A DNA stretch of 64,000 bases, taken from a virus. A program made the translations under genes and the position numbers. The stretch covers positions 106,171-170,170 of the IMG/VR virus record IMGVR_UViG_3300027972_000007; one strand, 5' to 3'. The notes beneath the pieces were generated by a model. The model searched no databases, was not told the origin of the DNA, and saw nothing but the letters and a program-made list of their open reading frames with translations. Positions 3,650 to 56,156 of this stretch are shown here, in pieces (position 1 is the first letter of the stretch; each line of letters begins with the position of its first letter).

Positions 3650-3733
3650 TATTTTTTACCTTTATGATGTTGCGGTTGGAATGCCAAATAAAATACAAAA
3701 TACTGACGATATAACCAACAAACAAAAACTCTA

Positions 3734-3934
3734 TCACTCGCATCTTTTGCCGTGGTAAAGCCTGCATTTGTTGCGCGATTTAGGAGGTTGCCTCCATAAT
3801 TTCAGCGGTGCGGGGCTTACGGCTATATAAGGGTGGCCGGATTCATACGCCAGCACGCCTTCCCGACTTCGAGCATATAGCAACCCCTGGCAGCCGTCAA
3901 CCCTAATGCTGTCTATCGCACAGCCTATAATCAT
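3734..3934 (-). CDS. cassette ORF, hypothetical
   Basis: GAGG RBS after core GTTGCGC at 3960; matching R'' GCGCAAC at 3770-3776. Confidence 0.5.
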   Translation of the reverse strand: MIIGCAIDSIRVDGCQGLLYARSREGVLAYESGHPYIAVSPAPLKLWRQPPKSRNKCRLYHGKRCE

Positions 3935-3953
3935 AAAAGCAACCTCTTATTTC

Positions 3954-4123
3954 GCGCAACGACTGGCTATGCCTGAAGTTGCCGCTTTACAATATCTAAC
4001 ATAGCTTTCGCGCCTGCCATATACCATCGTACTAACAGCGGATCATTATTTTTTCGCAAACCACCGGATAATTCTTCCTTATATTTGCTGAATAACGGCA
4101 ATTTTAGGCATGTTTTGTTGGTG
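3954..4123 (-). repeat. attC-like site
   Basis: Minus strand CACCAAC...ATGCCTAAAATTGCCG / CGGCAACTTCAGGCAT...GTTGCGC. Confidence 0.65.
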
Positions 4124-4278
4124 GATGGTTTATGGCATTCCTTAATGTAAGCACGAATGTACTTCCACGCTTCGGTTTGCCAACCATACAGTTTCGGTGG
4201 TAACATCGGACTATCACACACACTATCCATAACACAACAGGCATGTTCAATATTTGTATAAATTACAGATTCATTCAT
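3967..4278 (-). CDS. cassette ORF, hypothetical
   Basis: MNESVIY start overlaps (ATGA) the stop of 4275..4484; ends inside the attC-like site. Confidence 0.45.
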   Translation of the reverse strand: MNESVIYTNIEHACCVMDSVCDSPMLPPKLYGWQTEAWKYIRAYIKECHKPSTNKTCLKLPLFSKYKEELSGGLRKNNDPLLVRWYMAGAKAMLDIVKRQLQA

Positions 4279-4484
4279 TCGTGCCTCCAATGTAAAATTG
4301 CCAAAACTTTTCCGAGCGATTCTTTGGCACACTGAAGCATCTCACCTATAGTAATATTAGAAGCAGGCTCAAAAGCCAGTTGCTCATAATACCCACGATA
4401 TGAATGCGGCGAGTTAAACCCATTTGGAACAACAAGGTCGGCTTCCTCTTGTTCGAGACGAGAAATTAAACTTTGTAAATCCAT
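4275..4484 (-). CDS. cassette ORF, hypothetical (possibly truncated)
   Basis: AAGGA RBS; MDLQSLISRLE...SPHSYRGYYEQLAFEP. Confidence 0.55.
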   Translation of the reverse strand: MDLQSLISRLEQEEADLVVPNGFNSPHSYRGYYEQLAFEPASNITIGEMLQCAKESLGKVLAILHWRHE

Positions 4485-4537
4485 GTTTCTGTTCCTTTCT
4501 TGGCGCGGCATATAACTTAAAAAGTCAAGGCTATTGC

Positions 4538-4630
4538 GCCTAACGTTCTCAGCAACGGGTGCTGGAAACGCCTATAATAAAATCTAATCATTAATATCCT
4601 GCGTTTCTGGCATCCCTTGCTGTGTTGTGC
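4538..4630 (-). repeat. attC-like site
   Basis: Minus strand GCACAAC-ACAGCAAGGGATGCCAGAAACGC...GCGTTTCCAGCACCCGTTGCTG-AGAAC-GTTAGGC. Confidence 0.75.
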
Positions 4631-4763
4631 GAAGTTTGCGATGATTCCTTAATTTAGCCACCGCATAATCGTATGTATCGCACTTATCAACTTCAAAAAT
4701 CTTACATGGAAGCGTACACATTTTTTGGATGGGGCACTTTTGGCATAAAGAAACAAATGGCAT
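4584..4763 (-). CDS. cassette ORF, Cys-rich 59-aa hypothetical (not in the ORF track)
   Basis: GGAGG RBS; MPFVSLCQKCPIQKMCTLPCK; stop lies in the attC loop. Confidence 0.5.
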   Translation of the reverse strand: MPFVSLCQKCPIQKMCTLPCKIFEVDKCDTYDYAVAKLRNHRKLRTTQQGMPETQDIND

Positions 4764-4810
4764 AATACCTCCCTGCGGTGGCCTACTTATATATACTCAT
4801 CGCAAATTTT

Positions 4811-4885
4811 GCACAACGTCCGACAAATGGTGAAGTTTTTGTACTCAAAAATTTGCGGGTACTCCCCACCATTTGTTTGTTGTAC
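4811..4885 (-). repeat. attC-like site
   Basis: Minus strand GTACAAC-AAACAAATGGTG...CACCATTTGT-CGGAC-GTTGTGC. Confidence 0.8.
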
Positions 4886-4889
4886 GAAG

Positions 4890-5078
4890 TTAATTGGCGA
4901 CTCCGCTTTCTTCTGCCGCCACATCTTCGACGAACTCCGCCGAAGCGTCAGGATTTTTTTCAAGCTGCTTGATAGCGTTACAGAGTTGCTCTTTGCCAAT
5001 AGCCAACTGGAAACCAATACGCGCTTCGGTCAAATTGTGCCTTGCATTTTCGAGAACTTCCAAAACCGATAGAGACAT
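4890..5078 (-). CDS. cassette ORF, hypothetical
   Basis: AAGGA RBS; stops just before the R'' core. Confidence 0.55.
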   Translation of the reverse strand: MSLSVLEVLENARHNLTEARIGFQLAIGKEQLCNAIKQLEKNPDASAEFVEDVAAEESGVAN

Positions 5079-5130
5079 AACCGATCCTTTCTTTGTGGCG
5101 GCCTATAATAAAGACTCACCAATTAATTTT

Positions 5131-5272
5131 GTACAACGTTCTTCGCTACTGGTGCTGTTTGTGTGGACACTCGCCCACGTAAATACACGCCAGTTTATCA
5201 CCAACATTGCCTGTTGAATGCTCACACTCCGCACTATTGAGAGCACAAATGGCATCCATAGCGCTGTTGTGC
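5131..5272 (-). repeat. attC-like site
   Basis: Minus strand GCACAAC-AGCGCTATGGATGCCATTTGTG...CACAAACAGCACCAGTAGCG-AAGAAC-GTTGTAC. Confidence 0.75.
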
Positions 5273-5376
5273 GATATAAAATTTTTTTCAACAAGTATTA
5301 ATGCTTCTGTAACCTCTATTGAGTGTGGAAAAGGTATTGAATTTAATATTATATCATAAGCATCTTTATTAGTCAT
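5146..5376 (-). CDS. cassette ORF, hypothetical
   Basis: GGAG RBS then MTNKDAY; C-terminus is encoded through the attC-like site. Confidence 0.5.
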   Translation of the reverse strand: MTNKDAYDIILNSIPFPHSIEVTEALILVEKNFISHNSAMDAICALNSAECEHSTGNVGDKLACIYVGECPHKQHQ

Positions 5377-5402
5377 ATAATCTCCAGAAAAAATTTTATT
5401 GC

Positions 5403-5550
5403 GTACAACGTTCACCGCACTGCGCGAAGTTGCGCTAAAACTGCATTAAAATCATCATATTGAGCTAATGTTAATTTATCAGACAACTGTTGTTGTAAAG
5501 AAATTATTCACCGTTCAATAAAAGCAATTTTGTTGCTGCGGTTGTTGGCT
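5403..5550 (-). repeat. attC-like site
   Basis: Minus strand AGCCAAC-AACCGCAGCAACAAAATTGC...GCAACTTCGCGCAGTGCGGT-GAAC-GTTGTAC. Confidence 0.7.
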
Positions 5551-5750
5551 GTGCCCAGCCCACCTGCTACACCCCCGCTGTGCTGCGCTTCAATGTTTCC
5601 TTCTTGCCGGGCGATCTTCCAATCTTTTTCGTCAACAATAACGTGGCCTTCTGGTAAGTTTTTCTTAAACTCCATGCCCGGATGCCTGTGAAGAAACCCC
5701 ACCGTATCATTTACTGGATACCCCAAATATTCCTGCTTAAACACTTGCAT
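5508..5750 (-). CDS. cassette ORF, hypothetical
   Basis: AAGGAA RBS then MQVFKQE. Confidence 0.5.
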   Translation of the reverse strand: MQVFKQEYLGYPVNDTVGFLHRHPGMEFKKNLPEGHVIVDEKDWKIARQEGNIEAQHSGGVAGGLGTANNRSNKIAFIER

Positions 5751-5794
5751 AAAGTTCCTTTCTTTCGCCCGGCCTATAATCAGCGCAGCATTGC

Positions 5795-5953
5795 AGCCAA
5801 CGGATTGCAAAGGCATGAAGTTAAGCCCTATAAATAGGACAATAAATAACAGCTCCATGCCCTTTACAATTAAAACCATCCTTTTCACCAACAAAAAACT
5901 CGGAACATTCCTTATTATTACAAGGCTTAATTTTATTCTTTGTCGTGTTGGCT
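5795..5953 (-). repeat. attC-like site
   Basis: Minus strand AGCCAAC-ACGACAAAGAATAAAATTAAGCC...GGCTTAACTTCATGCCTTTGCA-ATCC-GTTGGCT. Confidence 0.7.
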
Positions 5954-6138
5954 GTGCCCTGCCCACCTGCTACGCCCCCGCTGTGCTGCGCTTCCACCTG
6001 CTCTTGTGCGGCGATCTTTTCTTGTATCAGTTTTGCTTTCCAAATTTCCAGAAGAGCAATAGATTCCGCAAAAGTATAATCACTCTTATAAACCTGCTGC
6101 CCATTAAATTCAACAATTGACATCGTTCTGGTCTTCAT
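5821..6138 (-). CDS. cassette ORF, hypothetical
   Basis: GAGGAG RBS then MKTRTMS. Confidence 0.55.
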   Translation of the reverse strand: MKTRTMSIVEFNGQQVYKSDYTFAESIALLEIWKAKLIQEKIAAQEQVEAQHSGGVAGGQGTANTTKNKIKPCNNKECSEFFVGEKDGFNCKGHGAVIYCPIYRA

Positions 6139-6217
6139 TTTTACTCCTCGCCGCACCTATAATCAGCGCAGCATTGCAGCCAACTATACAAAGTATGTAA
6201 TAACTATATATGTATAT

Positions 6218-6415: not shown

Positions 6416-6422
6416 ATTTATA

Positions 6423-6451
6423 ATATATATTATAATAAGAAATAAGTCAAG
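6423..6451 (-). promoter_or_regulatory. sigma70-like promoter upstream of the cassette array
   Basis: TTGACT-N17-TATATT on the minus strand; CTTGACTT recurs near 4525, 10215 and 32838. Confidence 0.5.
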
Positions 6452-54726: not shown

Positions 54727-55648
54727 TTTATCAAATTTTATGCAAATTGAAAAGGCTAAGAATAAAATTTTAATTTTTGATTTTCATAATTTATGTTATC
54801 GAACTATTTTTGTAGCAGCAAATGAATTTAGAAATAATCAAACAAAAGTTTTTGATAGAGATCCCGAAATGAAGGATTTATATCAATATTGGAAACATAT
54901 AGTTTTAAATGCATTTTTTTATAATAGTTTAGAAAAAAATCCAAGTAAAATTATTATTGCAGTAGATGAAAGGAATAGTTGGAGAAAAAAAGTATATTCT
55001 GGTTATAAAGAAAATAGAGCTAAAAGTAGAGAAGATTCGCTGGTAGATTTTGGAACGTTTTTTCCAATAATGAATGAGTTTATAAATAATTTAAAAGAGA
55101 TGTTTCCGAATGTTTATATTCTCAAAGTAAATGAATGTGAAGCTGATGATATTATAGCAGTTTTAACAGCAGAATTAGCAAAAGACGATAATCGTATTGA
55201 ATTAATTAGTACAGATAAAGATTTTTATCAACTTCACAAATTTAAAAATTTTAAACAGTTTAATCCCATCAAAAAAGAATATGTAGTTTCAATGAATCCC
55301 AAAAAAGATTTAGAAGTAAAAATTTTAACGGGCGATAAGGGAGACGATATTCCAGCAGTTAGAGAACGTTTAGGAGAAAAAACTGCAGAGAAATTATTAA
55401 ATGAGGGATTAGAAGAATTATTACAAGACGAAGTTGTAAAAAAGAATTTTATTAGAAATAGAGAATTAATAGATTTTGATTATATACCGGCAAATTTAAA
55501 GGAAAAAATTATTCAAGAATATAAAAATTATCCTTTGAATACTATGGATAGAAGTATTATTTGGGCTTGGTTATTAAGAGAAAAATTAAAAAAATTAGCA
55601 GACGAATTTCAAAAATTTGTTTTGTTGTTTAATAATTTGAACTCATAA
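54716..55648 (+). CDS. rnh: T4 RNase H-like 5'-3' exonuclease
   Basis: SWRK..Y..YK.NR, EADDIIA, STDKDF, GDKGDDIP. Confidence 0.92.
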   Translation: MESNLSNFMQIEKAKNKILIFDFHNLCYRTIFVAANEFRNNQTKVFDRDPEMKDLYQYWKHIVLNAFFYNSLEKNPSKIIIAVDERNSWRKKVYSGYKENRAKSREDSLVDFGTFFPIMNEFINNLKEMFPNVYILKVNECEADDIIAVLTAELAKDDNRIELISTDKDFYQLHKFKNFKQFNPIKKEYVVSMNPKKDLEVKILTGDKGDDIPAVRERLGEKTAEKLLNEGLEELLQDEVVKKNFIRNRELIDFDYIPANLKEKIIQEYKNYPLNTMDRSIIWAWLLREKLKKLADEFQKFVLLFNNLNS

Positions 55649-55703
55649 CATATTAGTAATATGCCGTTATTTATTCTTATAATAATAAAATATTAATAGT
55701 GAA

Positions 55704-56156
55704 ATGACAGAACACAATTTTTTTAATGTAGCAAATAAATCGAAATTTCTTGGTTCTTCTAATCCCATTTATCGTTCGTCGTGGGAAAAAAGAATAATGA
55801 CATTTTGTGATATTAATGAACGAGTGAAAAGATGGGGTTATGAATATGTTACTATACCATATTATGGCGGCGATGGTAAACAGCATCGGTATATTATAGA
55901 TTTTTATATAGAAATTTTAGATAATAGTAATAAATTACGAAAATGTTTGGTTGAAGTGAAGCCAATGAAAGATTCAGTTAAACCTAAACCGCCAAAAGTT
56001 AATAATAGAAAAGCAATGTTTCGATATATTTACGAATTAAATACTTTTAAGAAAAATACTAATAAATGGAATGCGGCAAGAATGTTTTGTGAAAGTAAAA
56101 ATTTAGAATTTCATGTTTTAACTGAAGCTACAATTAAAAGATTTGGTGCTCTATAA
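55704..56156 (+). CDS. head completion nuclease (T4 gp4/TnsA-like)
   Basis: YRSSWE, IPY...HRYIIDF, VEVKP, KWNAA. Confidence 0.88.
   Translation: MTEHNFFNVANKSKFLGSSNPIYRSSWEKRIMTFCDINERVKRWGYEYVTIPYYGGDGKQHRYIIDFYIEILDNSNKLRKCLVEVKPMKDSVKPKPPKVNNRKAMFRYIYELNTFKKNTNKWNAARMFCESKNLEFHVLTEATIKRFGAL

Follow-up and report, generated by a model that had tools for sequence, protein, structure and literature searches.

Integrons are regarded as bacterial devices, and clusters of their attC sites in phages are read as stray bacterial cassettes. Here we analyse an array of small gene cassettes bounded by attC-like hairpins, which lies in a 64,000-nucleotide (nt) stretch of phage DNA (the window; positions 106,171 to 170,170 of IMG/VR record IMGVR_UViG_3300027972_000007) and which an earlier annotation, made from the letters alone (the sequence-only reading), had taken for an integron-type array. 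The bottom strand of an attC site reads 5'-R' (RYYYAAC) to R'' (GTTRRRY)-3', with cleavage within the R' AAC. Each arm contributes 5-6 nt to an unpaired central spacer, and extrahelical bases are found next to L'', on the arm facing the cleaved R'; in the coding (top) strand this is the 5' arm (PMC5027507). Clusters of attC sites lacking integrases (CALINs) were published in 2023 from virulent phages, where they are recombined by IntI1 (Qi et al. 2023, PMC9892861). Sedentary chromosomal integrons hold hairpin families, such as the Vibrio cholerae repeats (VCRs), with kept ends, variable middles and unrelated open reading frames (ORFs) (PMC5027507). Finally, T4-type phages carry small ORFans between repeated promoter early stem-loops (PeSLs) that mediate modular shuffling (PMC2839356, PMC4122927).

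The array described here has features of each of these systems. As in CALINs, small co-oriented ORFs without promoters of their own are each followed by an imperfect hairpin with an xxxxAAC/GTTxxxx core, units are divided at G|TT, R'' complements the first bases of its own cassette, and no integrase lies nearby. Hairpin families with kept ends and variable middles, accompanied by unrelated ORFs, recall the sedentary integrons; unlike these, the phage arrays are short (4-7 units) and lack the platform (intI, attI). Small ORFans between repeated stem-loops and homologous exchange in conserved linkers are shared with the PeSL cassettes, yet a PeSL consists of a conserved sigma-70 early promoter joined to a terminator stem-loop, occurs in copies of high sequence identity and recombines by homology, whereas the hairpins here have no promoter, are unrelated in sequence and meet at junctions within a 3-4-nt core.

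The window is the final 64 kb of a 170,170-bp record, estimated to be 74% complete, from a T4-like phage (G000), whose major capsid protein is of the T4 type (Gp23, E 5e-78). GC content is 40-47% across positions 3650-6200 against 21-27% in the flanks, this island averaging 43% in a genome of 27.7%, and every plausible ORF within it lies on the minus strand; in this the sequence-only reading, which had seen a GC-richer island of short co-oriented ORFs, was right. The array itself spans 3770-6184 (about 2.4 kb) and comprises seven units, all on the minus strand (Table 1). Seen on the plus strand, GTTxxxx cores alternate with xxxxAAC cores at 3770, 3954, 4117, 4538, 4624, 4811, 4879, 5131, 5266, 5403, 5544, 5795, 5947 and 6178, so that all the cores proposed earlier were recovered. 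On the coding strand, a cassette begins at the TT of a GTTxxxx core (R'). Its leader of 20-50 nt, in which the motif (A/T)TTATAGG and a ribosome site are usual, is followed by a small ORF, the xxxxAAC core (R'') and the imperfect hairpin, and the cassette closes with the G of the following GTT. All six window sites and 31 related ones have AAC (R'') and GTT (R') triplets at the foot of an imperfect hairpin, along with R and L boxes; the core consensus is GTTGKNY, in which the RRRY of GTTRRRY is kept loosely.

A weight matrix built from 20 R' junctions scored 14-24 at seven minus-strand sites of the island. At its threshold of at least 14 it gave just two further matches on both strands of the 170-kb genome, within or near ordinary genes. 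Because matches are almost confined to the island, the array is real rather than a product of chance. Other GC-rich islands of the genome were considered as second arrays and rejected: two weaker matches at the genome 5' end fall within the major capsid gene. The island probably represents a horizontally acquired array of seven cassettes. A single sigma-70-like promoter rises above background, upstream of the array at 6450-6422, where the sequence-only reading had placed one (about 6430), and no promoter-like site above background was found at the cassette starts; the window cassettes are likely driven from this predicted promoter. The island had no match among 50,697 phage records (blastn), an Rfam scan of the island gave nothing meaningful among matches with E up to 10, and one of three related loci gave nothing meaningful either. 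The window phage was assembled a second time with an identical result.

Evidence that such cassettes move comes from related loci (given here by G and L numbers), collected from the contigs of cassette 1 protein homologues, from pattern scans and from scans of viral contigs, which yielded about 20 further loci. Homologues of the cassette 1 protein have modules swapped at the cores, and nearly all loci long enough to judge have 2-7 co-oriented R' junctions. The clearest case is the pair L015 and L017, whose copies of two cassettes, P and Q, match each other at 99.7-100% identity and stand in reversed order (...|P|Q|GTTGCAT... in L015; (P)|S|Q|P|GTTGTAT... in L017). All breaks fall at ...CG|TTGnnn; P, Q and S have unrelated hairpins, with no more than about CGTTG in common. 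Similarly, one cassette (99.8% identity) is preceded by different hairpins in L003 and L006, one unit common to L010 and L022 has different neighbours on both sides, and an ORF and hairpin common to L015, L017 and L020 have three different downstream partners. An ORF is always kept with its downstream hairpin, while the pairing of a hairpin with the next ORF varies; in both unit and crossover point, the phage cassettes therefore agree with those of integrons. They move unit by unit, with junctions at G|TT between unrelated hairpins. The opposite unit, a hairpin with its downstream ORF, which the site geometry described below would lead one to expect of an IntI-like enzyme, is ruled out by the adjacencies in L015 and L017. 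Fixed gene order among relatives, which would have spoken against the sequence-only reading, was not what we found: the related arrays are reordered cassette-precisely, their contexts swapped at G|TT, a result in favour of mobility.

In an integron cassette that has passed through a circle, R'' is expected to match the start of its own cassette, and this rule had been noticed in the window. For 28 cassettes from the window and related loci, we defined R'' independently, from the L-box register, and compared its four variable bases with the start of the same cassette and with the adjacent downstream R'. The match to the own start was perfect in 16 of 28 (mean 3.3 of 4) and that to the adjacent R' in 2 of 28 (mean 1.8 of 4), across more than 10 different cores. 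In the window, cassette 6 is an exception to the rule.

The hairpins themselves are of uneven quality. DNA folding showed only two clean stem-loops among the six window hairpins, 4811-4885 and 4538-4630 (z-scores -3 to -6.6). An intermediate value was obtained for 5403-5550 (z -2.3 to -3.3), where an R and an L box are clearly present at the foot of the stem, and the hairpins at 3954-4123, 5131-5272 and 5795-5953 are paired at their bases and weak in their interiors (z about -0.8 to -3), through which the ORFs run. Of the six complete hairpins claimed earlier, two are thus clean, one is intermediate and three are weak inside.

Geometry was therefore compared over a set of 31 non-redundant hairpins from the window and related loci. 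The usual layout on the coding strand is xxxxAAC, 1-2 nt, an L helix of 5-6 bp, a variable interior, a bulge of 1-3 nt, the L helix, 4-5 nt and GTTxxxx; the bulge, often G, is on the 3' arm, and the spacer of 4-5 nt is typically GAAC or AAAC. Most of the 31 hairpins keep this layout across at least nine unrelated L-box sequences, and the members of a 75-nt family differ in the L box by double substitutions that compensate each other (ACAAATGGTG/CACCATTTGT versus AGCAATGGTG/CACCATTGCT). As a control, we folded the aadA1 attC site of plasmid R100 with the same script; both of its bulges lie on the coding-strand 5' arm, at positions 16 and 23, in agreement with the published structure. In nearly all the phage sites, by contrast, the bulges are on the coding-strand 3' arm together with the longer spacer, and only 1-2 nt separate the boxes on the other arm, where attC has 5-6 nt on each. 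The phage sites are mirror images of attC, relative to the ORF and to the crossover point. With the crossover at R' and the bulges on the R' arm, the mirroring extends to the chemistry, and an IntI that obeyed the strand rules of the literature should cut at the opposite end. In the strict sense, the integron-type attC sites of the sequence-only reading are not borne out, since their asymmetry mirrors that of canonical attC and one spacer is much shorter.

Further differences from CALINs are that the interiors of the phage hairpins are often coding and that two probes found no bacterial counterpart. One hairpin family, A10, is represented by 11 variants whose DNA is invariant at the ends, with some 70 nt of variable sequence between them. 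In each of the ten variants from outside the window, the reading frame continues in phase and unbroken from the AAC codon until it meets a TGA in the spacer, 3 nt short of R'; the window variant, in cassette 2, has an in-frame nonsense codon. Unlike the variable middles of sedentary integrons, the A10 middle is an ORF fused in phase to the upstream ORF. The tail encoded at 5795-5953 differs from its relative in L002 by seven synonymous and three non-synonymous codon changes and a two-codon indel, and several hairpin-encoded tails are Cys-rich. In L015 (reverse-complemented, 780-880), the hairpin loop of cassette P holds a separate 33-codon ORF for a hydrophobic peptide, whose start overlaps the upstream stop (ATGA); hairpin interiors can thus carry mini-genes of their own.

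Pairing between the cassette ends also continues past the core. The first 40 nt downstream of R' and the last 60 nt upstream of R'' fold together into a helix of about 10 bp, an internal loop of about 12 + 12 nt and a second helix of 8-10 bp, which directly precedes the ribosome site; the 5' side of the internal loop holds TTATAGG. End pairing reached z < -2 in 28 of 36 cassettes (mean z -5), and the end helices covary, as in one ORF family where the window has TGCTGCGCT:AGCGCAGCA and L003 has TGCCGCACCG:CGGTGCGGCA. This additional pairing over about 20 bp, in two helices around a TTATAGG-holding loop, sets the phage cassettes apart from CALINs. In an excised single-stranded circle, the end helices would lengthen the hairpin into a long stem. 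TTATAGG occurs only within the arrays in G001 and G002 and is concentrated in the array in G000. In the window, (A/T)TTATAGG (CCTATAAT on the plus strand) is found at 3925-3932, 4571-4578, 5102-5109, 5773-5780 and 6156-6163; it sits in cassette leaders and some hairpin loops, always right before a GC-rich helix strand. A promoter formed by R' as -35 and TTATAGG as -10 was rejected: the spacings range from 15 to 24 nt and the motif is specific to the arrays rather than genome-wide. A shared segment, EAQHSGGVAGG, had been considered as the leader and core of a ribosomally synthesized and post-translationally modified peptide; this was dropped because the segment is the 3' pairing partner of the 5' untranslated region (UTR) and covaries with it.

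Arrays of this kind occur in phages with unrelated backbones, each with one co-oriented array: G000 with its Gp23 capsid, G001 (49.7 kb, phrog_675 terminase), G002 (32 kb, phrog_283 capsid), G003 (a complete 48.9-kb genome with terminal repeats), L022 (a family A polymerase, PolA, with AAA_24 and Gp157) and L001 (an ATP-dependent ligase). The only proteins common to G000, G001 and G002 are parts of the arrays and pentapeptide-repeat ORFs. The latter (L025 7503-7925; genome positions 7-585 and 55440-55973 of G000) are the sole likeness between G002 and G000 outside the arrays, and G002 has one such gene directly downstream of its array. Two probes, a conserved hairpin 27-mer and the cassette 1 protein module, found no match in about 185,000 prokaryote species, represented by one genome each. 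The capture of the cassettes from a host integron, proposed in the sequence-only reading, is disfavoured by these empty searches and by the recurrence of the cassettes in unrelated phages.

We think it probable that the island is an acquired array from a phage-borne, integron-like cassette system. As a working mechanism, a structure-specific recombinase would act on folded single strands, cutting in the AAC/GTT core, and the cassette would leave as a circle, its R'' paired with the R' formed anew. Such an enzyme would be supplied in trans by the host or another element; since the sites mirror attC, it would differ from classical IntI. Homologous recombination in conserved linkers would add a second layer of mosaicism, and the window cassettes would be read from the promoter at 6450-6422. 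Several observations weigh against this picture. No match to TIGR02249 (IntI) was found in G000, 74% complete as it is, and none of G000, G001, G002 or the complete G003 has a match to PF00589, PF00239 or PF01797 (tyrosine, serine and Y1 recombinases); a recombinase, if any, therefore acts in trans. A complete integron has intI, attI and the promoter Pc beside the array, and of these a promoter alone is present. The bulges stand on the wrong arm for attC, and the spacers depart from 5-6 nt on each. Some exchanges break in conserved linkers or at the R'' side and not at R', as homologous or copy-choice recombination gives: L013 and L021 have exchanged inside a conserved linker, and a 78-nt hairpin region (4891-4814) is 98.7% identical in G001 between flanks that are unrelated on both sides. 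No excised circles or excision events were seen in the assemblies. Finally, the flanking phosphoesterase had no relatives among the viral contigs searched and no sister phage was found that would show gain or loss at this locus. The absence of TIGR02249 and PF00589 from G000 agrees, for its part, with the sequence-only reading of an integrase-less array of promoter-less cassettes bounded by attC-like hairpins.

A bolder form of the same view, which we hold only tentatively and would sooner doubt than assert, is that of a phage-specific counterpart of the integron, with mirrored attC-like sites, hairpins that serve as exchangeable C-terminal tails joined in phase at the AAC codon, ends that zip into a long stem, so that an excised single strand would take the shape of a dumbbell, a recombinase other than IntI (Xer-like from the host, or of a new family) and accessory genes that circulate among unrelated phages and not between bacteria. 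The mosaics might instead be a by-product of PeSL-like shuffling that has no enzyme of its own: the hairpins and paired ends would be mainly RNA or transcription signals, such as terminators or stems for processing or stabilisation, and phage homologous recombination, or template switching after stalling at hairpins, would act at short conserved blocks. This has a precedent in the T4-type phages, whose ORFan cassettes are shuffled at stem-loop and promoter motifs with the formation of mini-circles (PMC2839356, PMC4122927), and it would suit the linker exchange of L013 and L021, the presence of several A10 hairpins inside one array, a complete phage (G003) without recombinase and a 5'UTR-to-3'-end pairing that covaries and could serve the mRNA. 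The 5' and 3' cassette-end modules are also shared block-wise, independently of the ORF body: those of cassette 1 are common with L001 and L022, its ORF body with L003 and L006. As some exchanges are not at R', homologous or copy-choice recombination in conserved blocks does contribute; it fails to explain the P/Q/S joins, however, because those hairpins share only about 5 nt, too few for homologous recombination. Moreover, the cores covary with their own cassette start, whereas an RNA hairpin model would select adjacent pairing, hairpins unrelated in sequence retain the same spacer lengths and bulge position, and the stem-loops, unlike PeSLs, have no sigma-70 promoter. We consider shuffling without a dedicated enzyme to be unlikely.

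That the array is a classical CALIN, with canonical attC cassettes that came from a bacterial integron and that a host IntI recombines, appears to us improbable. The AAC/GTT cores, one of them the textbook GTTAGGC, the R and L boxes, the bulged bases and the complementarity to the own start would all be expected of it, and CALINs of virulent phages do recombine with IntI1 (PMC9892861), but the bulges and the long spacer are on the crossover-side arm, where attC, in the aadA1 control as in the literature (PMC5027507), has them on the opposite one; the spacers of 1-2 and 4-5 nt do not fit, ORFs continue through the hairpins, no IntI was found in G000 and the two prokaryote probes came back empty. 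Chance palindromes or ordinary terminators in a GC-rich foreign operon, with no mobility at all, would account for the weak folding of three of the six window hairpins and for one terminator-like stem within 4811-4885; with the R' motif confined to the island, cores complementary across cassettes and the same elements reordered in other phages, this explanation is very improbable indeed. The phage-borne, integron-like system remains our preferred reading.

The window copy itself shows signs of decay, namely the nonsense codon in A10, a cassette 6 fused by deletion and a coreless end, and its last unit has neither an ORF nor a hairpin behind it. Judged from these features, the copy is probably an acquired orphan array, decaying and still expressed, and it is probably inactive in recombination. 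The active shuffling in the window phage suggested by the sequence-only reading is thereby called into question.

Table 1. Predicted promoter and cassette units of the window array. Cores, ORFs and hairpins are given in coding direction.
Feature	Span	Strand	Elements
Sigma-70-like promoter (predicted)	6422..6450	-	TTGACT-17 nt-TATATT; 5' of the array and of a 65-aa AT-rich phage ORF (6415-6218)
Cassette 1	5801..6184	-	R' GTTGGCT 6184-6178; ORF 6138-5821; R'' AGCCAAC 5953-5947; hairpin 5953-5795
Cassette 2	5409..5800	-	R' GTTGGCT 5801-5795; ORF 5750-5508; R'' AGCCAAC 5550-5544; hairpin 5550-5403
Cassette 3	5137..5408	-	R' GTTGTAC 5409-5403; ORF 5376-5146; R'' GCACAAC 5272-5266 (one mismatch); hairpin 5272-5131
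Cassette 4	4817..5136	-	R' GTTGTAC 5137-5131; ORF 5078-4890; R'' GTACAAC 4885-4879; hairpin 4885-4811
Cassette 5	4544..4816	-	R' GTTGTGC 4817-4811; ORF 4763-4584; R'' GCACAAC 4630-4624; hairpin 4630-4538
Cassette 6 (decayed, fused)	3960..4543	-	R' GTTAGGC 4544-4538; overlapping ORFs 4484-4275 and 4278-3967; R''-like CACCAAC 4123-4117; hairpin 4123-3954
Terminal unit	3770..3959	-	R' GTTGCGC 3960-3954; R'' GCGCAAC 3776-3770; no hairpin after it

Individual units differ in their state of preservation. Cassette 1 contains ATTATAGG in its 5'UTR, its hairpin interior codes for a Cys-rich C-terminal tail and its ends pair past the core (z -4.4). The A10 hairpin of cassette 2 has a geometry of 1 nt, a 6-bp L box and 4 nt. 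In cassette 3, the body (5273-5402) has about 25% GC, like the window phage, whereas its neighbours have 40-50%; it keeps matched ends and a 22-nt terminal inverted repeat. The low GC suggests that this body was formed in, or exchanged among, AT-rich phages and, being the phage's own, hints at past activity in an AT-rich lineage. Cassette 4 ends in a clean 75-nt stem-loop (2 nt, a 10-bp L box, 5 nt) that has a relative with compensatory changes in L002, and its own ends pair with z -8.4; cassette 5 has a bulged G on the 3' arm of its hairpin and ends that pair with z -9.3. In cassette 6, the R''-like core mismatches the cassette's own start and the hairpin is weak and deviant in its spacing. 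Its ORF 4484-4275 encodes a shortened protein of the phrog_12889 family, a common family of phage early proteins. Homologues of this family were tried as guides to further arrays and abandoned, as their contexts on long contigs are ordinary packed early operons without arrays; one integrase near such a homologue is unrelated to any array. The terminal unit, which also has ATTATAGG, shows no ribosome site or convincing ORF, and its strong fold takes in the whole unit (-37.7 kcal/mol, z -4.3); it may represent a remnant, or else a cassette specifying a non-coding RNA. Searches of the cassette proteins against Pfam, PHROGs and Atlas assigned no function.

Larger genes lie in or next to the related arrays. 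Their products resemble a C5-methylase (L015 128-826, minus strand; a weak match), a 3'-phosphoadenosine-5'-phosphosulfate (PAPS) reductase (L020 211-954, minus), a MazG-type pyrophosphohydrolase (L016 733-1464, minus) and an MT-A70 methyltransferase (L002 3-557, plus), which are typical accessory or counter-defence functions of phages; DNA methyltransferase-like cargo is another point shared with CALINs. In L010 (10650-11180, minus), a GC-rich, strongly palindromic, non-coding stretch of about 500 nt lies between a thioredoxin gene and the first cassette. It had no match in Rfam, and it could be a structured RNA or a part of the array platform.

Our literature search found no paper on mirrored sites, paired cassette ends or translated hairpins. 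The cassettes, the hairpin families and their reshuffling were found only among very different phages, and together with the mirrored design of the sites this points to a separate exchange network for phage accessory genes and to a recombinase that reads folded DNA differently. Identical cassettes in different orders, bounded by sites of fixed geometry, provide a test set for the search for this enzyme and for the question of the translated hairpins.

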